From an uncultured Candidatus Saccharibacteria bacterium (lineage in GTDB: Bacteria; Patescibacteriota; Minisyncoccia; UBA6257; JACOXY01), in assembly GCA_964357615.1 (NCBI GenBank), contig CAYHMC010000001.1, positions 2,602 to 66,601 of the forward strand: a stretch of 64,000 bases of DNA, read 5' to 3'. The notes beneath the pieces are model-generated. The model worked only from the letters and a program-made list of their open reading frames with translations. It searched no databases and had not been told where the DNA came from. A program made the position numbers and the translations under genes. Each line of letters opens with the position of its first letter. Within the stretch, counting starts at the first letter, position 1. Below are positions 17,606-64,000 of the stretch, piece after piece.

Positions 17606-17646
17606 GTAATCTTGCTTTAATTTTTGGTTAGAGGGCAAGAATTAAT

Positions 17647-20247
17647 ATGGTAAAAAAACTACTGGAACAATTATTTCTCCCAAACAACATAAAGCCTCTG
17701 GTTTATAAAATTACATTAACTCCAGATTTAGAAAGTCACACTTTTGATGGAAAAATAAATATCGCTTTAAATATATTAGAGGCAACTAATTGTATTATTT
17801 TGCATGCAAAAGATTTAAAAATAAAAAGTGTTTTTCTCGATATTGCTGGAAAACAGATTATCCCAAGTGAAATTATTCTCGACAAAGAAAATGAAAAACT
17901 AGCATTAATTTTTAGCGAAGATTTAAAACCCGGAGAAACATACCTTAATATTTTATATTCTGGTATATTAAACGACCAAATGTCAGGATTCTATAGAAGT
18001 ACTTATATAGTTGAAGGGGAAAATCGAATGATGGCAGTTACACAATTTGAAGATACTTCGGCTAGAATGGCGTTTCCGTGTTTTGATGAACCAAATATAA
18101 AAGCAAGATTTAAAGTAGAATTAATAGTTCCTAAAAATCTTGATGCATTATCAAATACTAAAATAGAAAAAGTAGTCTCAAATGGTTCGAGTAAAACAGT
18201 AACTTTTGAGGAAACGCCAATAATATCAACATATATATTAGCGTTTTGTGTTGGCGAGTTTGAATGCATTGAATCACTTGAACGAAAAGGGATGCCTAGG
18301 ATAAATGTTTATACAACCTCAAATAAAAAAGAACTTGGTCGCTTTGCCCTAGGGGTAGCAGAATCAATAATTGTAAGATGTAGCGAATATTTTGATCATC
18401 CCTACATGGGTACAAAGCTCGATCTTATTGCCATTCCTGATTTTGCCGCTGGAGCAATGGAAAATCTTGGTCTTATAACTTTTAGAGAAAGTGCAATTTT
18501 AATTGATGAGAAAAATTCTTCCAGAAGCGCCAAGCAAAATGTTGCTATAACTGTGGCGCATGAAATTGTTCATATGTGGTTTGGAAATCTTGTAACAATG
18601 AATTGGTGGGAAGAGCTTTGGTTGAATGAATCTTTCGCAACAGTCATGTCATATTATTTTGTAAATGAACTTTTTCCAGAATGGAATGCTTGGAATAAAT
18701 TTATGGTTTACGAATATTCTTCTGCATTAAACGATGATGCACTGCGTTCAACTCACTCAATTCAAATGCCAATTAAAGCAAAACATGACATTGGTCAAAA
18801 TTTTGACACTATAAGTTATGAGAAAGGAGGTTCTGTGCTTAGAATGATAAAGGGTTATCTTGGCGACGATATTTTTATGGCTGGGCTTCAGCTTTATATT
18901 TCACGCCATGCATACGGAAATGCTAAAACTAAAGATTTGTGGCAAGCGCTAGAAGATGCATCGGGTAAGCCAGTGCGCAAAATTATGGAAAGTTGGATTT
19001 CTCAGCCCGGATACCCATTACTTGAAATTTCAGAAAAAAATGAGAATGAAGTTGTCGTAAGGCAACATAGATTTTTATCAAGTGGTGAACCATTACAAGA
19101 GGAAGAAGATAATCAAATTTGGCTAATAGAAACCAATTATATAAATAGCGAAAAAAAAATTGAAGCAATAAAGTTAGAAAAAAAAGAGGAAATTGTTTCT
19201 ATATCCAAAAAAAATCAATGGGTTAAAATTAATAATCATCAGCTTGGTTTTTTTCGGGTTAAATATCCCGAAGAATTTTTAAATAAGCTAAAATCTGGAG
19301 TAGCAAAAAAAGAAATTTCTTCTATCGATAGAATGGGTATTGCTGATGACCTTTATGCGCTAACTAGAGCAGGATTTATTCCGGCAACACAATTTCTATC
19401 ATTTTTGGAATCTTATCAGAATGAAAACGAATATATTGTGTGGGCGAGTATTATTCAAAGCTTAAGTGAACTTGAAATACTTTTTGAGCATGATAAAAAA
19501 GCAACAGAAATATATCATATATTCGCTAGAAGTATAATTAAAAATATTGCAAAAAAAATAGGATGGGATGAGAAAAATAGTGAAAGTGATGACGATAAGT
19601 TTCTTAGGCCAATAGTGCTTGGCGCATATGGTCATTATGGCCATATAGAGACCATTACAAGGTCACGCGAATACTTTAGAGCATATTGTAGTGATGGGGA
19701 GGCAGTTAATCCAGATTTAAGGAATATGGTCTGTCGTATAGCTGCTAAACATGGAAATGAAGAAGACCATGACATTGTGCTTAATAGATATCGTCACGAA
19801 ACACATCCAGAAGAAAAATTAAGATTTCTTAGAACTTTAGGTGGTTTTCCTCATGACCATCTTGTTAAAAAAACATTGGAATTTGGTTTGGGCGGAGAAG
19901 TTAAATCGCAAGACCTGACTTCAATAATATATTCCACTGCGTTAAATGATAATCACGAAGCAGCAAAGTATACATGGTCATTTATAAAAAAGAATTGGGA
20001 TGAAATTCACAAGCGCCTTGGTCAAAGCATTGTTCTTTTAGAGCATACCGTAAAAGGGAGTGCGCATAGTTTAAATAGTCACGAAGAGGCGTTCGATTTT
20101 AAGAAATTTTTTGAAGCAAATCCAACTCCAAAAATTAGTAAAGCAATTTCGCAAACTTTGGAAATTATTAGCTCTCGCGCAAATTGGATTTCTCGCGATA
20201 GAGATAGCGCAACAAAATGGCTTCTAGACTGGTACAAGATGAAATAA
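17647..20247 (+). CDS. pepN: Aminopeptidase N, M1 family zinc metallopeptidase
   Basis: The GAMENLG exopeptidase motif and HEIVHMWFGNLVT-x18-E (HExxH plus distal Glu) are present. Length 866 aa. Confidence 0.92.
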   Translation: MVKKLLEQLFLPNNIKPLVYKITLTPDLESHTFDGKINIALNILEATNCIILHAKDLKIKSVFLDIAGKQIIPSEIILDKENEKLALIFSEDLKPGETYLNILYSGILNDQMSGFYRSTYIVEGENRMMAVTQFEDTSARMAFPCFDEPNIKARFKVELIVPKNLDALSNTKIEKVVSNGSSKTVTFEETPIISTYILAFCVGEFECIESLERKGMPRINVYTTSNKKELGRFALGVAESIIVRCSEYFDHPYMGTKLDLIAIPDFAAGAMENLGLITFRESAILIDEKNSSRSAKQNVAITVAHEIVHMWFGNLVTMNWWEELWLNESFATVMSYYFVNELFPEWNAWNKFMVYEYSSALNDDALRSTHSIQMPIKAKHDIGQNFDTISYEKGGSVLRMIKGYLGDDIFMAGLQLYISRHAYGNAKTKDLWQALEDASGKPVRKIMESWISQPGYPLLEISEKNENEVVVRQHRFLSSGEPLQEEEDNQIWLIETNYINSEKKIEAIKLEKKEEIVSISKKNQWVKINNHQLGFFRVKYPEEFLNKLKSGVAKKEISSIDRMGIADDLYALTRAGFIPATQFLSFLESYQNENEYIVWASIIQSLSELEILFEHDKKATEIYHIFARSIIKNIAKKIGWDEKNSESDDDKFLRPIVLGAYGHYGHIETITRSREYFRAYCSDGEAVNPDLRNMVCRIAAKHGNEEDHDIVLNRYRHETHPEEKLRFLRTLGGFPHDHLVKKTLEFGLGGEVKSQDLTSIIYSTALNDNHEAAKYTWSFIKKNWDEIHKRLGQSIVLLEHTVKGSAHSLNSHEEAFDFKKFFEANPTPKISKAISQTLEIISSRANWISRDRDSATKWLLDWYKMK

Positions 20248-22691: not shown

Positions 22692-23234
22692 ATGTTAAAA
22701 CTTTTCACCAAAATACTAAAAACTCCTAGAAATACGATATCTATAGATGAAATTAATAATGAGCATGCGGAAGTGTTGGCAGTCGGTCAGAAAATACATG
22801 AAAAAGTAAAGCGTTTATTTAGAGGCTCTCTTGCTATTAGGCAAGTAGATGCGGGATCAGACAATGCTTGTGAGCAGGAATTAGTAGCACTTTCCAATGC
22901 TTTTTACGATATAGAGCGTTTTGGAATACATTTTGTAGCGTCACCCAAACACGCGGACATGTTAATGGTGACTGGCCCAGTAACTAGAAATATGGCTGAA
23001 GCTCTAAAGAGAGCATACGATGCAACACCAGATCCAAAGATTATCGTAGCTCTAGGAGACGATGCGATAGATGGGGGAATTTTTAAATCATCTTATGCGG
23101 TTCTAGATGGCGTTAAAGAAGTAATCCCAGTAGACTACAGTATTCCTGGTGACCCACCCACACCAAAGGTAATTCTCAATCATCTTTTGAAAATATTAGA
23201 AGTTATTGATGAGAAGTCATTAAAGTCAAAGTAA
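22692..23234 (+). CDS. NuoB/HycG-like small-subunit homolog of group-4 [NiFe] hydrogenase / complex I. It is degenerate, with 3 of 4 FeS-cluster Cys ligands replaced.
   Basis: The backbone ...FGIHFVASPKHADMLMVTGPVTRNM...DPKIIVALG..IPVDYSIPG.PP aligns with NuoB/HycG. At the ligand positions it reads DAGSDNACEQE, GDDAIDGG and PGDPP, where canonical sequences have C(G)xC..C, GxC..GG and GCPP. Confidence 0.75.
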   Translation: MLKLFTKILKTPRNTISIDEINNEHAEVLAVGQKIHEKVKRLFRGSLAIRQVDAGSDNACEQELVALSNAFYDIERFGIHFVASPKHADMLMVTGPVTRNMAEALKRAYDATPDPKIIVALGDDAIDGGIFKSSYAVLDGVKEVIPVDYSIPGDPPTPKVILNHLLKILEVIDEKSLKSK

Positions 23235-23235
23235 C

Positions 23236-25281
23236 ATGCTAGAAATATTTGCTTCATCACTTAGTTTTTTCGTTCTCCTATTCTTATTTTCCATTGGCGC
23301 AATTGGCTCTTTGGTTTTACGAAAAAATGATTGGATGGCAAATGGCTGGAGTAGTTTATTTGCAATTTCAGGTTCTATTTGGGGATTACTTTTATCAATT
23401 TCAATTTTTATAATGGGATCAGGAAAATCAATCTCACTTGGAAGATTTTCTTACCCGCTTCTAAATATTTCGTTTAATATAGATTTACTCTCAGTATTTT
23501 TTATATTTCTAATTTCCTTAATTACACTTTTCTGTTCAATATATGGAATTGGATATGTAAGACATTATTATAAAAAATATAACCTTGGTGTTCTAGGATT
23601 TTTTTACAACCTATTTATATTAGGCATGTACTTGGTTGTGACTGCGAGTAACGGATTACTTTTTTTAATTGCGTGGGAAGTTATGGCTCTAGCATCATAT
23701 TTTCTAGTAATTTATGACAGCAATGACCAAGAAAATATTAAAGCAGGATTCCTATATTTAGTAATGACTCATATTGGAACTGTCTTTATTACTATTTCAT
23801 TTTTGATGCTTTATAAATTTACTGGTTCATTTGATTTTGAAGCAATTAAAATTGGTTTGCCGTTTGTTCCACTTTACGCTAAAAATATTGTTTTTATTTT
23901 AGCTGTGCTTGGATTTGGAATGAAAGCCGGAATAATACCTTTGCATGTTTGGTTGCCCAAAGCTCATCCTGCCGCACCCTCCCATGTTTCTGGGCTGATG
24001 TCAGGCGTAATGATAAAAACTGGCATTTATATGATGATTAGAATGTTTATGGATATCCTCCAGCCAATTCCAGAATGGTGGGGATTTACATTAATGATAA
24101 TTGGTTCCGTTACAGCATTACTCGGAGTTCTTTATGCATTGGCTGAAAATGATATCAAAAGACTTCTAGCTTACTCCAGCATTGAAAATGTAGGTATTAT
24201 TTTGCTTGGATTGGGTAGCTCGCTTTCGTTTTATTCATTGGGCATGCATTCACTCGCGCTTCTTGGTTTAGTTGCGGCGCTATTCCACACTTTAAATCAC
24301 GCTATATTTAAGTCTCTTTTATTTTTGGGAGCAGGCTCTGTTATTTCGGAAACACATACTAGAAATATGGAAAACTATGGTGGACTTATAAAATACATGC
24401 CACAAACCGCATTATTTTTCTTAGTAGGTTCAATGGCTATATCATCTTTACCACCTCTTAATGGATTTTTTAGTGAGTGGATGACATTCCAAGCCATTTT
24501 TCAAGGAATAGCAACTCTGGGTATTTCTACAAGATGGGTATTTATTATTGCCGGAAGCTCACTTGCATTTACGGGTGGCTTAGCGCTTGCGTGTTTTGTA
24601 AAGGCATTTGGAACTATATTTTTAGCTCGACCAAGAAGTAGTGAAGTTAATCACGCCAGAGAATCTTCTATTTATTTGAAGATGAGCATGGGTTCGCTTG
24701 CGATTTTATCGCTACTTTTCGGATTGCTCTCTGGATTTGTATCGGCGTCAATTGAAAAAGTTGGTCGTGGCCTAAGTATTTTCAATGAAGTATCTTCTTT
24801 TGTATCAGTTTCACCATTTGGAAATATATCTGCCGGAAATTTGCCTTCGATCTCGGGTCCGTTAATGTTTGGTTCTCTAGTTGTAATAATATTAGGTGTT
24901 TTATTTGCAACAAAATATTTTGTTTATGGAGAGCAAAAAATAAAAATTGGAAACACTTGGGATTGCGGAATTGATTTAACTCCAAGAATGGAAATTACCT
25001 CAGCGGGATTTGCACACTCAATCATTACAATATTTAAAGGGGTGCTAAAACCAAGCTTACAACATGATGTTGAGTATCATGATGCAGATATCAGATATTT
25101 ACCAGAAACGAGAACTGTTACATTGAGTGTGAGAGATGTTTATCATCAATATTTATACAGACCACTAAATATTTTGGTAGAAGTATTATCAAAGAAAGCC
25201 AAAAAAATTCAAAGCGGAAATATTAATGCTTATATTCTTTATATTTTCATTGCATTATTAGTGGCATTGTATTTTGTATAA
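23236..25281 (+). CDS. NuoL/MrpA/HyfB-like antiporter-type membrane subunit
   Basis: About 16 TM helices. GIIPLHVWLPKAHPAAPSHVSGLMSGVMIKTGIY is the conserved NuoL/HycC proton-pumping motif region. It starts 2 nt after the upstream gene. Confidence 0.8.
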   Translation: MLEIFASSLSFFVLLFLFSIGAIGSLVLRKNDWMANGWSSLFAISGSIWGLLLSISIFIMGSGKSISLGRFSYPLLNISFNIDLLSVFFIFLISLITLFCSIYGIGYVRHYYKKYNLGVLGFFYNLFILGMYLVVTASNGLLFLIAWEVMALASYFLVIYDSNDQENIKAGFLYLVMTHIGTVFITISFLMLYKFTGSFDFEAIKIGLPFVPLYAKNIVFILAVLGFGMKAGIIPLHVWLPKAHPAAPSHVSGLMSGVMIKTGIYMMIRMFMDILQPIPEWWGFTLMIIGSVTALLGVLYALAENDIKRLLAYSSIENVGIILLGLGSSLSFYSLGMHSLALLGLVAALFHTLNHAIFKSLLFLGAGSVISETHTRNMENYGGLIKYMPQTALFFLVGSMAISSLPPLNGFFSEWMTFQAIFQGIATLGISTRWVFIIAGSSLAFTGGLALACFVKAFGTIFLARPRSSEVNHARESSIYLKMSMGSLAILSLLFGLLSGFVSASIEKVGRGLSIFNEVSSFVSVSPFGNISAGNLPSISGPLMFGSLVVIILGVLFATKYFVYGEQKIKIGNTWDCGIDLTPRMEITSAGFAHSIITIFKGVLKPSLQHDVEYHDADIRYLPETRTVTLSVRDVYHQYLYRPLNILVEVLSKKAKKIQSGNINAYILYIFIALLVALYFV

Positions 25282-25287
25282 CAAATT

Positions 25288-26220
25288 ATGATTATTTCTA
25301 CTACATTAATTCAATTAATTGTTACACCAGCGCTTTCCCCATTGGGTATTGGACTGATTAGAAAGATAAAAGCCAAGCTTCAGAATAGACAAGGAGCAAG
25401 TATCACACAACCGTATAGAGATTTATGGAAGCTTTTTCATAAAGACGAAGTGATAAGCAAAGATGCATCTTGGATTTTTAAATACGCGCCATATTTTGTT
25501 TTTGCGACCACAATTGTAGTTGGTTCTTGTATTCCATATATAGATTCCTTAGGACGAAGTATTTTAGCTCCAGACATGTTGGTTATTATTTATACTTTAG
25601 CAACAGGCACATTTTTTTTAGCATTGGCTGGAATGGATACCGGCGGTGGTTTCGGTGGTTTTGGATCTAGTCGTGAAATGACTATATCAGCCCTAGCTGA
25701 AGGGGGACTCATATTTTCATTTTTAACTTTATCAATAATTAGCCACACTACAAATTTACTCGAAATGGCAAATGGAATAAATTTAGCGTACGGAAATTTT
25801 TCCTTACCAATATTATTGGCTTTTTCAGGATATTTTATTGTGTTGCTTGCAGAAACATCAAGATTTCCATTCGATAATCCAGCGACTCATTTGGAACTTA
25901 CAATGATTCACGAAGCTATGATACTAGAATATTCTGGTAAAAAATTAGCCCTAATGGAATGGTCTGCCGCTAATAAGCTTTTTATTTTTGCTGTATTGGG
26001 TTCTAATTTATTTTTTCCTTGGTGGATAGCTTCTGGTGCAAGTATTTATTCTATTATTCAAGAGGTTATTGTTTTATTTATCAAACTATTACTCATCTAT
26101 ACCTCGATTGCATTATTAGAATCAAGCATCGCAAAATTTAGATTTTTTAGATTGCCAGATTTATTAATTATTTCATACATTCTTAATATTATTGCGATAG
26201 GATTAATAAATTACATATGA
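25288..26220 (+). CDS. NuoH/HycD-like membrane subunit
   Basis: 310 aa with 8 TM helices. Size and N-terminal region (TQPYRDLWKLFHK) match HycD/NuoH. Confidence 0.65.
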   Translation: MIISTTLIQLIVTPALSPLGIGLIRKIKAKLQNRQGASITQPYRDLWKLFHKDEVISKDASWIFKYAPYFVFATTIVVGSCIPYIDSLGRSILAPDMLVIIYTLATGTFFLALAGMDTGGGFGGFGSSREMTISALAEGGLIFSFLTLSIISHTTNLLEMANGINLAYGNFSLPILLAFSGYFIVLLAETSRFPFDNPATHLELTMIHEAMILEYSGKKLALMEWSAANKLFIFAVLGSNLFFPWWIASGASIYSIIQEVIVLFIKLLLIYTSIALLESSIAKFRFFRLPDLLIISYILNIIAIGLINYI

Positions 26221-26864
26221 TGATAATTTCTGAACAACTTTTGTTAACTCTATTTTTTGCAACAATTGTTTATTTTCATGTTGCGAAAAAAAATTATGGC
26301 GTTGCGATAACATATGGTATCCAGTCTTTTATTGTTGTCTTGTTGTTATTAAATTCATTCATGGAAACAAATTCAGTATCTCTACTTTTGATTGCATTTA
26401 TAGTTTTGATAGTAAAAGTGATTTTAACTCCTCTATTTATTATACAGCTGATTAAAAAACATGAATTAAAATTTTTAGTTAGTAGTTATACAAATACACC
26501 AATAACTCTTATCGTGGTTGCGATGCTTACCGCAGTTGCACATCTAAATATTTTTAAATCCCTGGTTAATATTGTTCCAGGCAACCAATCATTATTATTA
26601 CTAGCGCTATCGTCATTACTCATATCTTTATTTTTAATTGTAAACCGTAAGGGCGCATCTTCGCAGATTATTGGGATACTTTCGCTCGAAAACAGTATTG
26701 TGGTTTTTGCATTTTTTGCAGGCTTAGAGCAAGCAACCGCGCTTCAGATAGGCATTATATTTGATCTTTCTGTTTGGATAATAACGGCAACCGTTTTTAT
26801 GTCTATGATATATAGACATTTTGGTTCGCTCGATGTTACAGAAATGAAAAATTTAAAAGATTAA
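26217..26864 (+). CDS. HyfE-like small membrane subunit of hydrogenase-4-type complexes
   Basis: 215 aa with ~6-7 TM helices, the same size as E. coli HyfE. It sits between the NuoH-like and NuoN-like genes and overlaps the upstream gene by 4 nt. Confidence 0.5.
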   Translation: MMIISEQLLLTLFFATIVYFHVAKKNYGVAITYGIQSFIVVLLLLNSFMETNSVSLLLIAFIVLIVKVILTPLFIIQLIKKHELKFLVSSYTNTPITLIVVAMLTAVAHLNIFKSLVNIVPGNQSLLLLALSSLLISLFLIVNRKGASSQIIGILSLENSIVVFAFFAGLEQATALQIGIIFDLSVWIITATVFMSMIYRHFGSLDVTEMKNLKD

Positions 26865-26868
26865 AAAT

Positions 26869-28311
26869 ATGGAACTTACAATTATTTTAATATCAACATT
26901 AGCAACTGCTATCATTTGCTTAGCGTCAAGACAAAGATTAATTATTGAATTCGCGTCTGTTATTTCTGCTTTTGTCACATTATTTGAATCTACACTTGTT
27001 GCGTTAAAAGTTTCTTCATTCGGGACATACACTCCTTATAAATTTATAACAATTGATTCATTGGGGGCAATCGTTATGCTTATCATTTCTCTTGTTGGGT
27101 CTGCAGCGGTGATGTATTCGGTTGCCTATCTTAGAGAAGAAACAAAAAAACAAATTATTGGATTCACTCGGGTAAAACAGTATTTCGTATTGCTAAATCT
27201 TTTTTTAGCCGCAATGTTTTTAGCTGTCGCATCAAATAATCCCATTCTTACTTGGATTTCAATTGAAGCCACCACACTTTCAACAGCTTTCTTAATTAGT
27301 TTTTATAATAAACCAACATCACTAGAAGCAGCGTGGAAGTATTTGGTAATTAATTCTGTTGGCTTACTTTTGGGATTTTTTGGAACTTTACTTTATTTTA
27401 CTTCCTTTAAGTTGGTTGGCGAAGCGAATACAATTTCGTGGAATACCTTACTTTTGAATGCTGGTTATCTTGATCCAATGATTGCAAAAATAGCATTTGT
27501 TTTTGTACTTATAGGTTATGGTACAAAAATTGGTTTTGCTCCTATGCACACATGGCTTCCAGACGCTCACAGCAAGGCGCCTGCGCCAATTAGCGCGTTA
27601 CTCTCTGGAGTGTTGCTTAATGTTGCCTTTATTGCAGTTTTGCGGTTTAAATTAGTTACTGATGCGGCTGTTGGAATTGATTTTTCTAGAAACTTATTAA
27701 TTATTTTTGGTCTGCTTTCAATATTTGTAGCTTCGCTTATAATTTTCACGCAAAAGAATTACAAACGTATGCTGGCTTACTCAAGCATAGAGAATATGGG
27801 AATTATCGCGCTTGGTTTTGGTTTCGGAGGATTGGGAAGTGTCGCTGCTTTGCTTCATATGATCTATCATTCTTTACTTAAGTCTTCATTGTTTTTTTCT
27901 GCAGGAAACATATTTCTTAAATATAGTTCAACAAAAATTGATAAAATTAAGGGAACAATGAAAGCTTTACCAATCACTGCGGTACTATTTCTTATGGGAT
28001 TTTTCGCGATAACTGGTACGCCACCATTTGGTGTTTTTCTCACTAAAATATATATTTTATCAGCAGGCATGAGTGCACATCCAATAGTAACCGTTATTTC
28101 TTTTGTGCTTATGTCTTTGGTATTTGTAGGATTTTTTCAGAAAGCTGCAGCGATGACATTTGGTGAAAAACCACAAGGTATTGATTCTGGAGAAAATAAT
28201 GTTTGGCTTATTATTCCTTCGATGGCATTTATAACAATTGTAGTTTGTTTAAGTTTTTATATCCCACCATTTTTAATCAATTTATTAAACAGCACAGCTT
28301 CACATTACTAA
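26869..28311 (+). CDS. NuoN/NuoM/HyfF-like antiporter-type membrane subunit
   Basis: GFAPMHTWLPDAHSKAPAPISALLSGVLLNVAFIAVLRF; about 14 TM helices. Confidence 0.8.
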   Translation: MELTIILISTLATAIICLASRQRLIIEFASVISAFVTLFESTLVALKVSSFGTYTPYKFITIDSLGAIVMLIISLVGSAAVMYSVAYLREETKKQIIGFTRVKQYFVLLNLFLAAMFLAVASNNPILTWISIEATTLSTAFLISFYNKPTSLEAAWKYLVINSVGLLLGFFGTLLYFTSFKLVGEANTISWNTLLLNAGYLDPMIAKIAFVFVLIGYGTKIGFAPMHTWLPDAHSKAPAPISALLSGVLLNVAFIAVLRFKLVTDAAVGIDFSRNLLIIFGLLSIFVASLIIFTQKNYKRMLAYSSIENMGIIALGFGFGGLGSVAALLHMIYHSLLKSSLFFSAGNIFLKYSSTKIDKIKGTMKALPITAVLFLMGFFAITGTPPFGVFLTKIYILSAGMSAHPIVTVISFVLMSLVFVGFFQKAAAMTFGEKPQGIDSGENNVWLIIPSMAFITIVVCLSFYIPPFLINLLNSTASHY

Positions 28312-28312
28312 T

Positions 28313-29884
28313 ATGCAAAAGGAAAAAATTCAAAAATATATACCAGTAAATTCGAAAGCAGAATTTCTTAAAAATTCAGTACAATTTGAGGTTGAGTCAT
28401 TGGAAATATTAAAAATAGTGTCAAACTTGAAACACGAGCATAACTTAAGTTTAAAGCTAGTCACTGCTACGGATGAACAAAAAGAGCTAGGATGTTTTAG
28501 GATTTGGTACATTTTTGGAGTGCCCGATGAAGATGCTTTTGTTATTCCATATATTACGGTTAAGGATGCAAATGAATTTCCATCTATTACATCAATTTGC
28601 GGTGAGGCTATGGGGTATGAAATGAAGATTAGAACATTTTTTGGACTAAAACCAATTGGACACCCAGATTTTAGACAGACCATCCTGCATGAAAATTGGC
28701 CTGAAAATATACATCCACTTAGAAATGACTTCAAATGGGATAAGAGGCCAGAATTAGCACATGGGACATATAAGTTCCAAAAAGTTAATGGTGAGGGTAT
28801 TTATGAAATTCCAGTTGGACCAATACATGCTGGCATTATTGAACCTGGACACTTTAGATTTAGCGTTGCTGGTGAGAGGATTATGCTTTTAGAACCACGC
28901 CTAGGTTTTGTCCATAAAGGAAGTGAAAAGCTTTTTGAAATTCTTCCGATAGATCAAAAAATAAAGTTATCGGAAAAAATTTCTGGCGATAGCTCATTTA
29001 GTCATTCATTGGCATTTTGTGAGGCATTGGAGCAATTGAGTGACACTATAGTATCAAGTCGAGCAAAATATTTGAGAGTTATATTTGCAGAACTAGAAAG
29101 ACTCGCAAATCATTTTGGAGATATTGGTGCAATTATGATAGATACTGGTTTTAATTTTGGCGGAAGTAATGGGTCACGATTGCGCGAGATAATAATGCAG
29201 ATTAATGAGCGTCTTACTGGTAGCAGGTTCTTGCGTGGCGTAAATAAAATTGGCGGTGTTTCAAAAGATTTAAATAATGAAGAAAAGTCTCTTTTATCCT
29301 CTGATTTGGATAGAATACTAAAAGATTTTGGTGAAGTTATAAATGTTGCAGAAAATAGCGTGTCATTATTAAACAGATTAAAGGGGACTGGAGTCATAGC
29401 AAAAGAAGTTGCACAATTGAATGGCGTGATGGGGGTTGCGGGACGTGCTACTGGAATTGTTAGTGATGCAAGAATTGATTATAAATATGCAGCATATGGT
29501 GAAATTACTCCATTTGATATTGCGGTTGAGAATGACGGGGATGTATTTGCAAGATTTAATGTGCGCATTAAAGAAGTTCGCACATCGCATAAAATTATAA
29601 AAAATGCGTTGAAGAATTTACCTGAAGGCTCTATTAGAAGCGATGAGATGAATTCTGAATTTAAAGCGAATTCTCTCGCGATTAGTATTGTTGAGGGTTG
29701 GCGAGGAGAAATTGTTTACTTCGTAACAACCGATTCACATGGGAATATAAGTAGAGTCGTGCCTCGTGATCCGTCACAAATGAATTGGTCTGTACTTAAA
29801 GATGCTGGTTTTGATAATGTTGTACCAGATTTTCCATTAATAAATAAAAGCTTTAACTTATCATACTCTGGAAACGATTTATAA
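28313..29884 (+). CDS. Fused NuoC-NuoD / HycE-like large-subunit homolog of group-4 [NiFe] hydrogenase. All four Ni-Fe-binding Cys are absent.
   Basis: The N-terminal ~150 aa are NuoC-like (YEMKIRTFFGLKPIGHPDFRQTIL). Next comes VGPIHAGIIEPGHFRFSVAGE, which is HycE-like rather than NuoD-like. At the L1 position it reads KISGDSSFSHS where canonical sequences have RxCGxCxxxH. The C-terminus reads DFPLINKSFNLSYSGNDL where canonical sequences have DAPLIxxSLDPCxSCTDR. Confidence 0.8.
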   Translation: MQKEKIQKYIPVNSKAEFLKNSVQFEVESLEILKIVSNLKHEHNLSLKLVTATDEQKELGCFRIWYIFGVPDEDAFVIPYITVKDANEFPSITSICGEAMGYEMKIRTFFGLKPIGHPDFRQTILHENWPENIHPLRNDFKWDKRPELAHGTYKFQKVNGEGIYEIPVGPIHAGIIEPGHFRFSVAGERIMLLEPRLGFVHKGSEKLFEILPIDQKIKLSEKISGDSSFSHSLAFCEALEQLSDTIVSSRAKYLRVIFAELERLANHFGDIGAIMIDTGFNFGGSNGSRLREIIMQINERLTGSRFLRGVNKIGGVSKDLNNEEKSLLSSDLDRILKDFGEVINVAENSVSLLNRLKGTGVIAKEVAQLNGVMGVAGRATGIVSDARIDYKYAAYGEITPFDIAVENDGDVFARFNVRIKEVRTSHKIIKNALKNLPEGSIRSDEMNSEFKANSLAISIVEGWRGEIVYFVTTDSHGNISRVVPRDPSQMNWSVLKDAGFDNVVPDFPLINKSFNLSYSGNDL

Positions 29885-30370: not shown

Positions 30371-32033
<1,663 letters not shown>

Positions 32034-32094
32034 TTATTTCAATAAACGACTTTGTATTGTTTTTCATCATATATTTATAAAATGCGATCGCGGC

Positions 32095-32119
32095 TTCGTA
32101 CGGGATCATCCCGTACGAA
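32095..32119. promoter_or_regulatory. Perfect 12-1-12 palindrome (TTCGTACGGGAT-c-ATCCCGTACGAA) inside the atpG-atpD intergenic gap; a candidate operator or RNA hairpin
   Basis: It is flanked by related copies: tcatcccgaacgaa at 31986-31999 and tacgggatca at ~32218-32230. It is also flanked by the palindromes agatcgcgatct (32002-32013) and gcgatcgc (32083-32090). Confidence 0.5.
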
Positions 32120-32225
32120 ATAGGACGCGAACATTTTTTATTATCTACATTGTTTACTAATTATTATTAAGCTTTTATTAATCATTGTCATTATCATATA
32201 TGCGTGTCCGCTATTTCATACGGGA

Positions 32226-33155
32226 TCATGTGTTTGAATTTACTCCGGCAGATATTTCAGATAACTCTTGAGTAATAGCTGCTTGACGAGATTTATTAAA
32301 AATAAGTTGTAAATTATCTTTTAAGTCTGCGGCATTGTCTGACGCGCTCTTCATTGCTACCATTCTTGCTGAATGTTCTGAAGCATTAGATTCGAGTATT
32401 AAGTGATATATTACCATTTCTACTAGGTGTTTGGTTAAATCATTTAAAAGTTTCTGCGCTTCTTCTTTTGATGATGGCTCTGTAATATATTCAAAATGGT
32501 CGCTTAAAATTGATTTTGAATCATTGGCTTCTGAAAAACGACCATATTCTGGCACAAGTTCTTTAATATCTTCTTCAATTTTTTCAAAACTAATGGGAAG
32601 TAATTCACGAATCAAGACATCTTGACGAAGAGTTGTTTTAAAATGTGTGCTAATGGTTATAACTTTTGACCATTTACCACTCAAGAAACCATCAATAACA
32701 AAGTCAGCAAAATCTTGTGTGTGTTGTGGTGTGGCATAATCTCCAAACTTAGTAAACGATTTTTCTGTTCTTAAATTTTTGCGAACCAAATAATCTTCAG
32801 ATTTTTTACCTACTGCCGCATAAAGATATTTGTCAGAATCATCGGTAAAACTTTTCTCAAATTTTCTAAGTACGTTGCTGTTTAGTGATCCCGCGAGCCC
32901 TTTGTCTGCTGAAATAAGAATCACTAATGTTTTTCCGGACTCGCCTGACTCTACCATAAGAGCTGATTTGTGAGGAGAACGTTTTGAAATTTCACGCAAA
33001 ATTTCCATACCTGCAATTGCATATGGTCTGGAATTTAGCGCTAAAACCTGCGCTTTGCGCATTTTGTTGCTCGCAACCATTTCCATCGCCTTAGTAATTT
33101 GCTCGGTATTCCCAACTGATTTTATTCTTCTTTTAATTGATTGAGTAGATTCCAT
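32226..33155 (-). CDS. atpG: F-type ATP synthase gamma subunit
   Basis: 309 aa; the N-terminal IKRRIKSVGNTEQITKAMEMVA and C-terminal ...ITQELSEI match gamma. Confidence 0.88.
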   Translation of the reverse strand: MESTQSIKRRIKSVGNTEQITKAMEMVASNKMRKAQVLALNSRPYAIAGMEILREISKRSPHKSALMVESGESGKTLVILISADKGLAGSLNSNVLRKFEKSFTDDSDKYLYAAVGKKSEDYLVRKNLRTEKSFTKFGDYATPQHTQDFADFVIDGFLSGKWSKVITISTHFKTTLRQDVLIRELLPISFEKIEEDIKELVPEYGRFSEANDSKSILSDHFEYITEPSSKEEAQKLLNDLTKHLVEMVIYHLILESNASEHSARMVAMKSASDNAADLKDNLQLIFNKSRQAAITQELSEISAGVNSNT

Positions 33156-34678
33156 TATAGTGTGTTCTTAAAATTTTGAATTGCCAATTTTAATTTCTCT
33201 TCAATTTCTGTTGTCAGTTCTTTGGTGGTTCTTATGGGTTCTAATAAGTCGACGTCATGTCGCCCTCGCATATATTCCAAATATTTATTTTCAATATTTT
33301 TAAGATTTTGTACTGCCACATCATCAAAATAACCATTAATTGTTGCATAAAACACTAGCACCTGACTTTCAAATGGAAGAGGAGATGCATCATTCTGTTT
33401 CAATATTTCAGTTATCATTTGACCTCGTTTAATTTTATTTTTTGTCCCTTCGTCTAGATCTGATGCAAATTGAACAAATGCTTGTAATTCTCTAAACTGT
33501 GCCAATTCAAGACGAAGTTTACCAGAAACTTTTTTCATAGCTTTTGTTTGAGCTGAAGATCCTACGCGAGAAACAGAAAGTCCTGCGTTAATTGCTGGTC
33601 TAATACCCTGATAGAAAAGATCTGCCTCTAAATAAATTTGACCATCTGTAATAGAAATAACGTTGGTTGGAACATAGGCAGATACATCGCTTAGTTGAGT
33701 CTCTATTATTGGAAGCGCTGTTAAGGAGCCACCCCCTTTTTCTTTGCTTAATTTTGCAGAGCGTTCAAGAAGCCTAGAGTGGAGATAAAAAATATCTCCA
33801 GGATAAGCTTCTCTACCAGGAGTGCGTCGCAAGAGTAAAGAAATTTGTCTGTATGCAGTGGCGTGCTTTGAAAGGTCGTCATAGATAATCAATGAATCTT
33901 GACCTTGATCCATAAAATATTCTCCAATTGCACACCCCGCATATGGCGCTAAATACCAAAAAGATGCAGGGGAAGAAGCACCTGCCACAACTACAATTGT
34001 GTATTTCATGGCACCGGCCGCTTCAAGCTCTGATATTATTTTTGCAACATTTGATTCTTTTTGACCAATTGCAACATAAATACAAATCGGAATTTTCTGT
34101 CCTTTCTCATTTTGCTGATTAACAATCGTATCAATAGCTATTGCTGTTTTGCCAGTTTGGCGGTCGCCAATAATTAGCTCGCGTTGGCCTCGTCCTATTG
34201 GAATCATAGAATCTATTGCTTTAATTCCAGTATGAATTGGTGATTTTACTGACTCACGTTCAAGAACTGAAGGGGCCCGCTTTTCAATTGGGTAATTGGC
34301 TGGCTTAGCGCCTTTCCATATATCTCCTTTGCCATCAATAGGCTCTCCAAGGGGGTTAATAACCCTTCCAATGAGTTCTGGTCCCACTTTAATACTTAAC
34401 ACCTCTCCAGTGCTCTTTACCTCATCTCCGGCTTTAATTTTCTTAAAATCACCAAGAACAATTGCTCCAATTGATGATTCTTCTAAATTTAACGCCACAG
34501 CTTTAATGGACCCATCCTTGGTTTCGATGCTTAACATTTCTTGGCTCATTGCATTACTTAACCCCTGAATTTTAACTACGCCATCGGCAACCTCGATAAT
34601 ATTACCTATTTTAGAAATTAAAACATCACTCTTTGCGTTTTCAATTTCCCTTTTGAGTTTTTCAATTATTTCAAACAT
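33155..34678 (-). CDS. atpA: F-type ATP synthase alpha subunit
   Basis: [15 protein letters not shown] (P-loop) and ...[14 protein letters not shown]; 507 aa. Confidence 0.93.
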
Positions 34679-35040
34679 TTTAGTCTGTTCTGCAATGAGC
34701 TATCGATAGACAGCTCATCGTTAATTGTTATTTTTATACCAGCAATAAGTTTCTTGTTTATTTTAAAAGTCACATCACTATTTTTATTAAAAGAATTTTT
34801 AACTTTATCTATGAGTGGCTTACTTAATTCTCGAGCCGTTTCAATTTTAATTATTGAAATATTTTCCTTTGAGGCGATATTTTTTTTTATTTCATTGAAT
34901 ATTTTATTTGAATCTTTAATTGCCCCATGCTTTTTTAAGACAGAAGTAAAATTATTACACAGTTCATTATATTGGCTTTCTGGTGTTTTGAGTAACACTT
35001 CGCAAAATGCTTTAGCGAAAATTGTTGGTGAATATTGCAT
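34666..35040 (-). CDS. atpH: F-type ATP synthase delta (OSCP) subunit, short form
   Basis: It lies between atpF and atpA. The N-terminal [11 protein letters not shown] resembles the delta N-terminal YAKALFE motif. At 124 aa it is shorter than the usual ~180 aa. Confidence 0.6.
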
Positions 35041-60335: not shown

Positions 60336-60803
60336 TTATTTAGTTTTTTTGAGGCGTTTAGGGAGATGTTTATTTTGCCACTTGCGTTCGCGGTCGTGTT
60401 TGGCTATCCCTACGGCTTTTAGGGCATACATTGCAGCTCCAGGGGCATGAGTTGCAACATGTGCTACTGCAACTGCTTGGCCTGCAGAGCGTGCTGAAAA
60501 TCGTGCTGGGCTATCTTCTTTCGCACTTCGTGCCGCCGCATGAGCATCAAGTGAGGCTTTGCGGATTACTGCCATTTTAAAAATTCCAGTTCTTGCCCAT
60601 TTGCGACATGCTTTGATTGCTTCACGAGGGCGTTTATCTTTGGGAAATTCTTTTTCAAAATAGTGCAAAACATGCTCTGCGCAATCTGCAGCCCAAAGAG
60701 CCAATAACTTTTGGTCATCTTTAGTTACTTTTTTTAAATTGATTAAATTTAATTCAACTTCTTTTTTGAGGGTTATCAAAGAAATTGGACTAGAGTTTTG
60801 CAT
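60336..60803 (-). CDS. Hypothetical alpha-helical protein with an Ala-rich C-terminal half; locally GC-rich
   Basis: ...WAADCAEHVLHYF...AAARSAKEDSPARFSARSAGQAVAVAHVATHAPGAAMYALKAV. GC is ~50% across 60390-60590 against a ~30% background. Confidence 0.4.
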   Translation of the reverse strand: MQNSSPISLITLKKEVELNLINLKKVTKDDQKLLALWAADCAEHVLHYFEKEFPKDKRPREAIKACRKWARTGIFKMAVIRKASLDAHAAARSAKEDSPARFSARSAGQAVAVAHVATHAPGAAMYALKAVGIAKHDRERKWQNKHLPKRLKKTK

Positions 60804-60834
60804 TTACTAAGGTTAAAATATTATTTGTGGCCAA

Positions 60835-61455
60835 TCAATTTTTAATCTCAGAATTTTCTAAGAGGGAGAGCGCTAAGCTACTCATCGCTAAATATTGATA
60901 TGCTCTAATGGGATCATTAATTCTTGAGTCGGAAGTGTGACTTTTTTCATTTCTAAACATGTCAATAGCCATAGTAAGGAATTTGACTGCTTGATTAAAA
61001 TCTCCATCAACATTAGAAGCAGAAGCTCCTTTTATGTGTAACTTTCCTTTTCCAAAAGCTTCTGAACCTGTTTCATACCCAGTTAATTCTCGCAACTTAT
61101 CTCTTACGATTTTAAAACTTTTTTCTACGGCTTCGGCATATTCTTTCGACAAATATAAGGAGGTGCACTTTTCCTTTATCAGTGGGTGTATGTGAGAAAA
61201 TTCTTTTTCTATTGTTTTTGTATCTTTTTTTATGTGATTGGTTCTTTGTATATATTCATATAAACCTGCTTTCTTACGCCTTGTGAGAAACTTTTTTGCA
61301 CGCAACAATGCAACACCCATCTGCATTGAATTGAAATTGTTACCCCATGATTCCAGTTTTTTCAAAATTGCAGATGAGGTCCGCCAATTTCTAAAGAAGC
61401 CATCTTGCCAAAGAATCTTTAAACCATCGGATGAATTTTCTACAGATTTTTTCAT
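60835..61455 (-). CDS. HEPN-like protein (TIGR02391-type) with a C-terminal Rx4H motif
   Basis: ...NQAVKFLTMAIDMFRNEKSHTSDSRI... The R-x4-H sits in a helical C-terminal region. The gene overlaps the upstream gene by 1 nt. Confidence 0.5.
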   Translation of the reverse strand: MKKSVENSSDGLKILWQDGFFRNWRTSSAILKKLESWGNNFNSMQMGVALLRAKKFLTRRKKAGLYEYIQRTNHIKKDTKTIEKEFSHIHPLIKEKCTSLYLSKEYAEAVEKSFKIVRDKLRELTGYETGSEAFGKGKLHIKGASASNVDGDFNQAVKFLTMAIDMFRNEKSHTSDSRINDPIRAYQYLAMSSLALSLLENSEIKN

Positions 61456-61862
61456 TATTTACTTAATTCGTTTTCTACATATTGTTCTCCGGTAGATGTC
61501 AGAACCCATGACTTTTTTCCATTTTTCTTTTCTTCCGTTTCCATCATATGCGCATTTTTTATATTCATATTAACCTTATCGTTTATGTTGGCAGGTGCGG
61601 GATATTTAGCTGCAATAAAACCCTTCTTTAGATCATCTGCATTAACAGATTCAGTTTTTTCTACATGTTCTAAAAAGTAAGCAATTGCTACTGTTCGCTT
61701 TACGTCATCATTAATTTTTTTACCTAACAAAAATTCTTTAATAGACATTTTCTTTTTAGAATCTAAAACAATGCTGTCAAATGGTCCAGGTGATTTTATT
61801 TGTTCTAATTTATTAACTCTATCCTCCAAAGATGAGATTCTTTTTTCAATATGTTCATTCAT
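61455..61862 (-). CDS. Hypothetical protein (N-terminal coiled coil, possibly a C-terminal winged-helix-like region), translationally coupled to the HEPN-like gene
   Basis: 135 aa; ...GKKSWVLTSTGEQYVENEL at the C-terminus. It is 2 nt from the upstream gene. Confidence 0.4.
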   Translation of the reverse strand: MNEHIEKRISSLEDRVNKLEQIKSPGPFDSIVLDSKKKMSIKEFLLGKKINDDVKRTVAIAYFLEHVEKTESVNADDLKKGFIAAKYPAPANINDKVNMNIKNAHMMETEEKKNGKKSWVLTSTGEQYVENELSK

Positions 61863-61864
61863 AA

Positions 61865-62248
61865 TTATTTTTTAAAACGAGCGATTACTTGTGAAAGTTT
61901 ATAGTTTGGTAGATAGTAACGACTATTTTCTGACTTTATATCTTTTGACTCGAGAAGATTTTTTAGGGTTATTTTTACACTTCCCTCAGGGGCAATTTCC
62001 ATTTTTATTATTTCTGAAGGCGTTATTCTGTCTTCTGTGCCGAGTATTAGACTTCTAGCTTTTATTCCAGCTAGGACAAGAAGAATTCTTTCAGCGTTGG
62101 GAAGTTCCCAAAAGCCACCTGAAAACTCAAGAGTCTTCGATTCTTTATTTATTAATAGGTAAGGTTTTAAAAGATCAGCCAAGCCAACTTTGTCTATTGT
62201 TTGGGATTCGCTTACTAGTAAACTTGCCAATGGATCTTGATTGTTCAT
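61865..62248 (-). CDS. Hypothetical protein, first gene of a 3-gene coupled module
   Basis: 127 aa; no recognisable motif. Confidence 0.4.
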   Translation of the reverse strand: MNNQDPLASLLVSESQTIDKVGLADLLKPYLLINKESKTLEFSGGFWELPNAERILLVLAGIKARSLILGTEDRITPSEIIKMEIAPEGSVKITLKNLLESKDIKSENSRYYLPNYKLSQVIARFKK

Positions 62249-62547
62249 AATTGTAGTTTATAAATTACTTATAATAACTACTATTATAAACTATTCAAAT
62301 TAAAATGCAAGAGAAAGTGAAGTTTTTGGAGTATTATTTAGTCTATTATTTTAGTAATTTTTAAACTAGTCTAAATTTATCCTTATTTTAAAGCTTATTT
62401 CCTCATAATAAGAAAATATTTTTGTCGTGAATAAAAACTAATATATGCAATACATACTTATATTTATCCATATGAAAATGTTCCTTGCATTTTATACAGA
62501 ATAACTTGGTGATTGAAAGTTGTATTAAAAGGTGAAATAATTAAAAA

Positions 62548-62745
62548 ATGATAAGTTCCATTAGTCCAAAAGACGAATTAAATAAAAGTTTGGTGCGCAG
62601 AGACGACTCAGAAGAATTCAAAAAAGAAATGAAAAAACGAGAGAGTGATTATGCTAAGGACCTCGATTCTCTTAGTTTAGATTCCAAGAAAGACAAAAAA
62701 TTATCTGGACAAAAATCTCTAAAGCAAAAAAAAGACCGCAGATAA
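62548..62745 (+). CDS. Small charged ORF; probably the N-terminal exon-like part of the downstream DGQHR gene, separated by an apparent frameshift at an A8 tract
   Basis: ATG with an upstream AGGTGA. It ends 3 codons after an A8 run at 62726-62733. The +1 frame is open from 62723 to the window end. Confidence 0.35.
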   Translation: MISSISPKDELNKSLVRRDDSEEFKKEMKKRESDYAKDLDSLSLDSKKDKKLSGQKSLKQKKDRR

Positions 62746-64000
62746 AGCTTTTGAAGACAGGGTTTGGCTCTTGTTCGCCAATCTTGGAGCATCATTTTTA
62801 AACAAAGAAAATTCGAAATTATTCTTAGATATAAAAAAGACAAAACAAATTGATGTTATTGCTAAAATTGATGATCTAATTTTTGTTGTTGAGTGTAAAT
62901 ATTCAGAAAAAAAATCTAGATCACTAAGAAAAGATTTAGCTGAAACATCTAAATTAAGACGCCCAATAACAGAACTTTTTATAAATAATTGGCCAGAGGC
63001 AAGAGTAATTTTTGTTTATGCTCTTGAAAAAATAGAATTATCAGAATCTGATGAAAGAGACGCTTCAAATTACGGCATAAAGGTTTGGGATTCAAGCATA
63101 ATTTCTTATTTTGAAGATTTGGAAAATAGATTAGGTGACGCCGCAAAGTATCAAGTTTTTGCAGAATCACTTGAAGACGAGGAAATTGGTTCTTATTCGC
63201 CCAGAGTTCCTGCGATAAAGAGTGATTTTAACGGAGTTCCATTTTATTATTTTCTCGCACGACCAGAATCCTTGTTAAAAATAGCATATATTTTTCATAG
63301 GAAATTAAGAATTGGAGATCAGCACGAAAATCCATATCAAAGAATGGTAAACAAAAGAAGAATTGAGGACATTAGAAACTTCGTGGCTTCTAAGGGCTAT
63401 TTTTCAAATAATGTGATTGCAAACTTCAAACAATCACCAAAATTTAATAAAACTGATATTATAGAGGGTATTGAATACGGTGTTTTGACACTTCCAATTT
63501 TTTATCAGTCATTATGGATTATAGACGGACAGCATCGCTTATTTGGTTATTCAAATACAGGCGAAGCTAAAGACCACCTTATTCCAGTTCTTGCATTTCA
63601 GGGTCTTAATGAGGAAAAACAAGGCAAATTATTTATTGATATAAATTACAATCAAAAAAGTGTTGATCAAAATTTATTATGGGATTTGTATAGTGATATA
63701 TACTATCAAAGCAGAGATCCTGAAGAAAGACTGCTCTATGTGATAAGCATGATAGGTAAGAAACTAAATTCTAATAAAAGTTCTCCATTTTTTAACTACG
63801 TTTATATTCCAAGCATGAATGAATCTGGTCCGGGCGTAAATATTAAACTTACAACTTTTGGCGTACGGCTACAAAAGGGCAGTTTCTTAAAGGGGCAGAA
63901 AGATTTATTTAAAGAAAATAATGAGAATACTATAGATTTTGCTACAAAAAGAATAATCGAATATTTTAATATACTCAAAAGCTTTAACTCTAAAGATTGG
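62723..64000 (+). CDS. DGQHR-domain (DndB/DpdB-like, ParB-fold) protein with an N-terminal PD-(D/E)xK-like region. It is 3-prime partial (open to the window end) and is not in the supplied ORF track.
   Basis: 426 codons with no stop. The motif IIDGQHRLFGYS (63524-63538 encodes DGQHR) is followed by KLFIDINYNQK, a DndB-like FxDxN motif. Upstream, IDVIAKIDDLIFVVECKYSEK gives a D...ExK pattern. There is no in-frame ATG for ~200 codons, so the start is either TTG at ~62771 or an upstream ATG at 62548 reached via a frameshift. Confidence 0.6.

Follow-up and report, generated by a model that had tools for sequence, protein, structure and literature searches.

The reading frames close to the 3' end of a 64,000-nucleotide (nt) stretch of contig CAYHMC010000001.1 (positions 2,602 to 66,601; hereafter the window) were examined, where the gene for a predicted nuclease with a DGQHR domain is interrupted at or beside a run of eight adenines (A8). 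All coordinates given for this gene refer to the plus strand. The open reading frame (ORF) designated ORF1 begins at ATG 62548 and closes with the TAA stop at 62743–62745, giving a product of 65 amino acids (aa), and the A8 homopolymer occupies exactly positions 62726–62733. The downstream frame is closed on its 5' side by a TAA at 62720–62722, after which 426 stop-free codons (62723–64000) run off the end of the window, with the DGQHR motif encoded at 63524–63538. The earliest ATG of this frame is codon 208 (63344), and the sole start-type codon before it, counting ATG, GTG and TTG, is the TTG at 62771–62773. An earlier reading of the letters alone (the sequence-only reading) had described ORF1, a Shine-Dalgarno-like AGGTGA ahead of it, the A8 run, the open frame and the lack of an ATG for some 200 codons, and each of these was verified in the sequence.

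Deletion of one A from the A8 run gives an uninterrupted product of 743 aa, as the sequence-only reading had predicted, and the peptide SLKQKKTADKAFEDR spans the join between ORF1 and the downstream frame in the fused product. Because the possible repair zone is bounded by the TAA at 62720–62722 and by the stop of ORF1, a single-base repair of the frame is restricted to the 20 nt of 62723–62742, within which the A8 run is the sole slippery element; the smallest repair would be the loss of one A from this run. ORF1 comprises the 62 N-terminal residues of the DGQHR-nuclease gene, followed by three out-of-frame codons (DRR) and the TAA. The second A8 run of the gene, 175 nt downstream at 62907–62914, lies in frame (SEKKSRS), which shows that runs of this length can be assembled and accommodated with the frame intact. 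The remainder of the gene is carried by L001, a near-identical ENA contig in which 11,230 nt align gap-free with 2 mismatches (99.98% identity), and from which the stop was placed approximately 780 nt past the window, at the equivalent of position 64780.

The long frame had been described as unannotated. It is missing from the mechanically made ORF list, since ORFs running off the window end go unlisted there, but the source annotation holds a 669-aa gene (P0002) starting at TTG 62771 together with a separate 65-aa 'hypothetical'. P0002 begins MFANLGAS and is 100% identical to the window frame. A consensus scan upstream of ORF1 gave a promoter-like site at 62513–62541 (TTGAAA, a 17-nt spacer and TG-AATAAT) with 10 of 12 matches; this is a pattern match only, and promoter-like sites were not enriched relative to shuffled sequences. 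The AGGTGA lies at 62530–62535, 12 nt before the ATG, and is not conserved in either of the two close orthologous loci, L002 and L003.

Homologues and the N-terminus of the gene

A search with the fused protein gave two close, continuous relatives, P0001 (754 aa) and P0003 (704 aa), with identities of 86% and 83%; both align over 100% of the fused protein and run without a break through the ORF1 segment. The N-termini of these two (MKNLLSPKDELNKTLVRKDNSEEF...) line up with that of ORF1 (MISSISPKDELNKSLVRRDDSEEF...). A segment of 65–90 residues ahead of the FEDRVW helix is present in 118 of the best 120 homologues, in which DGQHR falls at approximately residues 325–345, and none of the 120 naturally starts at the point equivalent to the TTG. 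Neither close orthologue has the frame break, and every other homologue examined is continuous. Since the close orthologues and 118 of the 120 homologues carry the segment in frame, these alignments show that ORF1 is the true N-terminus and that the locus is one gene, not two. What stands above chance is a frame break in a gene that single, unbroken homologues match on both sides.

The part of P0001 equivalent to ORF1 is a structured alpha/beta segment in the AlphaFold2 (AF2) model, with a mean predicted local distance difference test score (pLDDT) of 72–93 over blocks of 10 residues, and shows the lowest conservation in the family (mean column conservation 0.35). Immediately beyond it, at least 90% of 65 homologues share E69, D70 and W73 of the first nuclease helix, together with D102 and E115, and C116 does not vary among them. 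An independent start at TTG 62771, which the sequence-only reading had raised as an alternative, is the one used by the source annotation, but it would remove the near-invariant E69, D70 and W73, residues that the downstream frame has kept unaltered.

The searches also defined the limits of the comparison. No JGI protein was more than 55% identical and no intact protein more than 86% identical to the query. A scan of genome contigs gave no relatives with the single protein, which places the source genome outside the GTDB species representatives, and only distant relatives, of at most 42% identity, with the family alignment; these scans therefore supplied no further close orthologues with which to date the frameshift.

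A 684-aa database protein (P0006) from a Saccharibacteria homologue (L008; GCA_964484655.1) was considered as a second N-terminally truncated member and was rejected, being a start called 56 codons late on an ORF (5833–8055) that is intact at 740 aa. Its upstream neighbour, 75 nt away, is a tRNA-Ser(gct) gene (5671–5758), a typical place for island insertion.

Domain architecture and spread of the family

The product of approximately 743 aa comprises four parts: a small alpha/beta segment at the N-terminus, a PD-(D/E)xK nuclease domain, a ParB/Srx-like DGQHR domain and a putative C-terminal HEPN domain, the last of which is encoded, with its Rx4H motif, beyond the window. The AF2 model of P0001 had a mean pLDDT of 89.4. 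The conserved E69/D70, D102 (62852–62854) and E115 form an E...D...ExK pattern with K117 (E115-C116-K117, 62891–62899), a lysine that is present in the window and lies off the lists of conserved columns. The core motif thus spans 62852–62899, and a restriction-endonuclease-like fold with the D...(D/E)xK core of the PD-(D/E)xK superfamily was found, so that the fold suggested for this region by the sequence-only reading was borne out.

The DGQHR domain (63212–63994) scored 120.7 bits against TIGR03187 (cutoff 58.85, E = 9.3e-35) and 50.1 bits against PF14072 (cutoff 29.1). Its YQR (63335–63343), DGQHR and FxxxN (63632–63646, F362/N366) motifs are invariant in the 65 homologues and are the signature motifs of the DGQHR family, namely the QR pair, DGQHR and FxxxN (PMC4619093). 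The domain matched the ParB/Srx folds of PadC (7.6), the ParB N-terminal domain (6.5) and sulfiredoxin (6.0), and in PADLOC it was DpdB-like (E = 1e-21), the match being limited to this middle domain. At the C-terminus the fold matched the HEPN proteins AbiF (10.6) and Swt1 (6.7), an RKRIKH motif is present and PADLOC gave PDC-M34B (E = 5e-15), the matches to PF18731 and PDC-M34B being weak. In some homologues an SLFN/AlbA_2 domain takes the place of HEPN.

The gene belongs with the DndB superfamily (TIGR03187/PF14072) in its QR pair, invariant DGQHR, FxxxN and ParB/Srx-like fold, but differs from DndB and DpdB in its N-terminal PD-(D/E)xK domain, its putative Swt1-type HEPN domain, its solitary setting and its scores, which fall far below the equivalog cutoffs. 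Identification as DndB or a dnd-associated protein (TIGR04172; 60.4 bits, cutoff 450) and as DpdB (NF041060; 58.5 bits, cutoff 300) was accordingly rejected. No dnd or dpd neighbours were present at the four loci examined, and no TGT-family gene was listed in L001, L002 or L008. The family was solitary in every context seen, and its neighbours at the source locus (L001) are small hypothetical genes and an ABC transporter.

Fusions of ParB-like COG1479/DGQHR domains to PD-(D/E)xK and HEPN nucleases were described by Makarova et al. 2013 (PMC3632139), and analysis of GmrSD ties DGQHR to the DGQQR motif in the NTPase domain of that Type IV enzyme (PMC4619093), so the DGQHR domain is probably NTP-binding. 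With GmrSD, BrxU and SspE the window gene shares a single polypeptide that combines a ParB/Srx-fold domain bearing a DGQ(Q/H)R motif with a nuclease (PMC4619093, PMC3632139), as well as a stand-alone, patchy, defence-like distribution. It differs in that these enzymes carry a C-terminal HNH/DUF1524 nuclease, whereas its own PD-(D/E)xK domain is N-terminal, and in the extra third domain, HEPN or, in some homologues, SLFN/AlbA_2. By analogy with GmrSD, BrxU and SspE, the family proteins are probably NTP-dependent nucleases directed against foreign nucleic acid.

Members were found at 591 or more loci of species-representative genomes, both bacterial and archaeal. They range from lineages of the candidate phyla radiation (CPR) and DPANN, with Saccharibacteria, Roizmanbacteria, Woesearchaeota and Micrarchaeota, to cultured strains of Bradyrhizobium, Devosia, Pseudovibrio and Enterococcus. 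The family would consist of stand-alone, horizontally spread genes of defence type, a role that we infer from the analogous systems. We know of no experimentally tested member of the PD-(D/E)xK, DGQHR and HEPN family.

Reality, origin and consequence of the frame break

The exact 65-aa product was found on five contigs, comprising the 143.6-kb NCBI contig, three ENA contigs and one Logan assembly (ERR3858121). Each of the three ENA contigs derives from a separate assembly of one replicate (R1, R2 or R3) from well H41 (Hain_H41_01um), sampled as 0.1-μm-filtered Hainich groundwater, at a coverage of 2–4x. The run was read as A8 in all four viewable contigs, which differ from the window by 0–5 substitutions and no insertions or deletions (indels). 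The sequence-only reading had offered a homopolymer error as one explanation, by which the true genome would hold A7 and an intact gene, and the low coverage of each assembly and the tendency of some platforms to err in homopolymers are in keeping with it. However, the A8 is common to three separately assembled replicates, an independent Logan assembly and, as judged from its product, the contig of the NCBI metagenome-assembled genome. The window contains 18 runs of at least eight A or T, of which some 15, of eight or nine, lie in frame inside intact long ORFs, and the data therefore handle such runs correctly. Moreover, the gene differs in length from its orthologues by 32 and 41 nt rather than by 1 nt, and the relaxation of ORF1 specific to this lineage, described below, is a biological footprint. 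The chance of an artefact is consequently minute: sequencing error is effectively excluded, and the frameshift is genuine at the DNA level.

Single-nucleotide polymorphisms among the five contigs were considered as a population signal and set aside as uninformative, being too few or forming an error-like cluster at a contig end. Counted on both strands, A8 was 3.3-fold rarer in the window than in dinucleotide-preserving shuffles (20 observed against 66.9 ± 14.3), which suggests selection against long A/T runs even at 34% G+C. An aminopeptidase-N-like gene (ORF 17632–20247) contains four A8 or A9 runs within approximately 400 nt (19151–19558), all in frame, suggesting a Lys-rich insert. The A8 at 1988–1995 was evaluated as a second frameshift candidate and rejected, as it lies at a normal gene end (…TEKK, TAA) with the next ATG at 2000; it falls within a 17-nt overlap of the stop-to-stop frames of a methyltransferase-like and a glycosyltransferase-like gene.

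The origin of the break was examined by alignment of the Lys-rich linker around the tract, which in the intact frames of the orthologues reads ATAAAAAA (A6) in L002 and TTGAAAAA (A5) in L003. The window linker is a net 32 nt shorter than that of L002 and 41 nt shorter than that of L003, both differences being 2 modulo 3. A single contiguous deletion relative to either orthologue was rejected, as the best single-gap alignments leave 12–14 mismatches in 30 nt; two-gap solutions (22 + 10 nt) fit the linker better. The A8 region itself aligns without gaps, in the downstream frame, to ATAAAAAAG in L002 and TTGAAAAAG in L003. The proposal that one A too many caused the break was therefore upheld only in part: A8 is the only slippery element available, but the linker differences and the gap-free alignment of the run do not single out an added A. 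We do not claim the extra base as an inserted A; we place the break within the A8 run or directly next to it, and it arose in a rapidly changing, A-rich linker, where an ordinary indel mutation in the A-rich tract would be its origin. The linker deletion takes out much of a beta-hairpin that the AF2 model of P0001 shows at residues 58–72 and that one Saccharibacteria homologue naturally lacks.

The 83%-identical orthologue L003 (Logan contig SRR32573209_283701) has lesions of its own near the 3' end (2150–2260), where an extra A (A5 to A6) shifts the frame; the continuing frame meets a premature TAA at a site where the window genome has a Ser codon, and the Rx4H motif of the putative HEPN domain is lost. 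Of the three close copies of the gene, two are thus broken, both at A-runs, as would be expected for a defence gene that can be dispensed with in a genome rich in AT and Lys codons.

The frame break is probably a recent inactivating or severely truncating mutation that is fixed or dominant in the sampled population, making the gene a young pseudogene or a crippled allele. Translation from the real ATG would end after 65 residues, and TTG 62771, which falls within the first nuclease helix, would be the earliest start open to the remaining 685 codons. Both the recency of the event and the loss of function we infer. The downstream frame has a ratio of nonsynonymous to synonymous substitution rates (dN/dS) of approximately 0.05 and no further lesion within it, and its aa changes on the window branch (31) are on a par with those of the orthologues (26 and 37), so that it is as constrained as in its relatives. 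The 27 nt of 62744–62770, encoding KAFEDRVWL (K66–L74, the first half of nuclease helix alpha-1), carry no window-specific substitution, for which the Poisson P is approximately 0.01–0.04 if the segment is neutral; were TTG the start these nucleotides would be untranslated, because they lie upstream of it. The openness of ORF1 was uninformative as a clock, with P = 0.12–0.29 under random substitution.

Several observations weigh against a recent and fixed loss. All of the supporting contigs come from one well, which bears on fixation at the population level, and the A8 state of the NCBI contig was deduced from its exact 65-aa product. In a three-taxon comparison of the window, L002 and L003, with small numbers (53–66 codons for the N-terminal piece), this piece showed 14 window-specific aa changes against 2 in L002 and 5 in L003 (Fisher P = 0.006), the rest of the protein showing 31, 26 and 37, respectively. 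By codon position the window-specific changes numbered 6/7/9 in the N-terminal piece and 28/13/113 in the rest (Fisher P = 0.005). A near-neutral ORF1 could mean an ancient uncoupling of this piece from a remainder that kept its function, and this would contradict a recent event. Two steps would fit both signals: an earlier in-frame loss, such as that of the beta-hairpin, may have relaxed constraint on the N-terminal subdomain, with the frameshift following recently.

The same data were weighed against a long-standing split, in which an old frameshift has left ORF1 as a decaying remnant and the TTG-initiated protein of 669 aa works as an N-terminally truncated variant, whose start could be reached by termination-reinitiation 26 nt after the ORF1 stop. 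The near-neutral pattern and excess aa changes of ORF1 agree with this, as do the strong purifying selection on the downstream frame, the low conservation of the N-terminal segment across the family and the Saccharibacteria homologue without the hairpin. It would nevertheless cost the protein E69, D70 and W73, it leaves the unchanged KAFEDRVWL segment unexpected, no homologue of the 120 begins at this point and the TTG is preceded only by a weak AGGG, while the fact that ORF1 has stayed open is of no help either way. As it explains the relaxed N-terminus but not the constrained KAFEDRVWL and the rest, a long-standing split is disfavoured and judged unlikely, although it deserves more weight than any other alternative considered here. 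Bypass of the break during expression, by RNA polymerase slippage on A8 or a +1 ribosomal slip on CAA-AAA-AAA-G, would restore some full-length protein and would account for the conserved frame upstream of the TTG and the constraint downstream, the resulting low-level expression being possibly beneficial. The A-run would let tRNA-Lys or nascent RNA re-pair in the needed frame, and the A11 run of Citrobacter rodentium tssM1 restores the frame at approximately 20% (PMC4256274). Such rescue, also seen at poly(A) in Buchnera and Blochmannia, shares with the window gene a poly-A tract a few codons before a premature stop, beyond which the gene goes on in a different frame (PMC4256274). According to PMC5574713, slippage rises exponentially with the length of A/T runs, and in transcriptome data single-base insertions dominate in them and deletions are rarely tied to homopolymers. 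The run here is only 8 nt rather than at least 10–11 nt, and restoration needs one A fewer or two more (−1 or +2 nt) instead of the favoured +1. Although the slippery run itself is present, no stimulatory element accompanies it: the 100 nt beyond the run have no stronger predicted folding than shuffled sequences (minimum free energy z = +0.98), no stop or obvious pause codon follows the run (the next zero-frame codon is GAC) and no upstream Shine-Dalgarno-like stimulator was found. The break is unshared by relatives, and slippage does not predict the relaxed N-terminal segment. The programmed slippage put forward by the sequence-only reading is therefore improbable.

Phase variation, in which A8 would act as a replication-slippage switch that is ON at A7 or A10 and OFF at A8, had also been put forward. 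Homopolymer contingency loci are well known from restriction-modification and surface genes of Haemophilus, Neisseria, Campylobacter, Helicobacter and Mycoplasma, and the anatomy here is the classical one, with a single-nucleotide tract near the start of a defence-type gene and frame restoration by 1 nt; A-run indels also recur in this gene clade, as in L003. In contrast to those loci, the window gene shows no length polymorphism, tract conservation or tract enrichment. Products of A5, A6, A7, A9, A10 and A11 alleles were all absent among approximately 15 billion proteins, while the A8 product was recorded on all five contigs and no intact protein above 86% identity was found. The tract is not maintained in related species, being A6 in L002 and A5 in L003, both in frame. 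With 18 long runs per 64 kb, some 15 of them in intact genes, A8 is background at 34% G+C, and long A-runs are scarce across the genome instead of clustering in certain genes. A switch is thus no more credible than the bypass. Taken together, a functional A8 that throttles a potentially self-toxic defence protein with three nuclease domains, whether by ON/OFF switching or by slippage, has a slender chance of being correct; if true, it would be a first case of homopolymer-controlled defence-gene expression in Patescibacteria, in a CPR host with a tiny genome. The frameshift at this locus looks like an ordinary one, and the genuine frameshift that the sequence-only reading had listed among its options is the one that the continuous homologues and the replicate contigs bear out.

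Neighbouring genes, host and significance

Divergent from the DGQHR gene, four tightly packed small genes lie on the minus strand at 60336–62248. They encode an Imm5-like immunity protein (PF21805, E = 4e-43), a Hypoth_Ymh/TIGR02391 protein and two proteins (135 and 127 aa) that matched no family, and may form a small conflict or defence islet. The L002 orthologue has entirely different neighbours. Elsewhere in the window, at 23224–29884 and 30624–34699, genes for Hyf/Mrp/complex-I-like membrane subunits and a NuoD-like large subunit resemble a group-4 hydrogenase, and this cluster adjoins the F1Fo ATP synthase alpha and beta genes. The best named relatives of AtpD were Candidatus Harrisonbacteria, Portnoybacteria and Liptonbacteria; judged by this grouping of AtpD with Parcubacteria, the host is an ultra-small CPR bacterium of Parcubacteria/Paceibacteria type. 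Such an energy-conserving, hydrogenase-like module may merit attention in the study of CPR physiology.

The main value of the analysis lies in annotation hygiene, as the calls of 669 and 65 aa misrepresent a single frameshifted gene, and the N-terminal segment is part of the protein, as are the near-invariant residues of the nuclease helix that it contains. The gene is a damaged further member of a known, widespread family of DGQHR/ParB-like nuclease fusions, and the locus illustrates that A-rich Lys linkers in AT-rich CPR genomes are indel hot spots that erode accessory defence genes. Independently of the frameshift, the family of approximately 750-aa proteins combining PD-(D/E)xK, DGQHR/ParB-like and HEPN or AlbA_2 domains appears to be a widespread candidate for single-protein defence.

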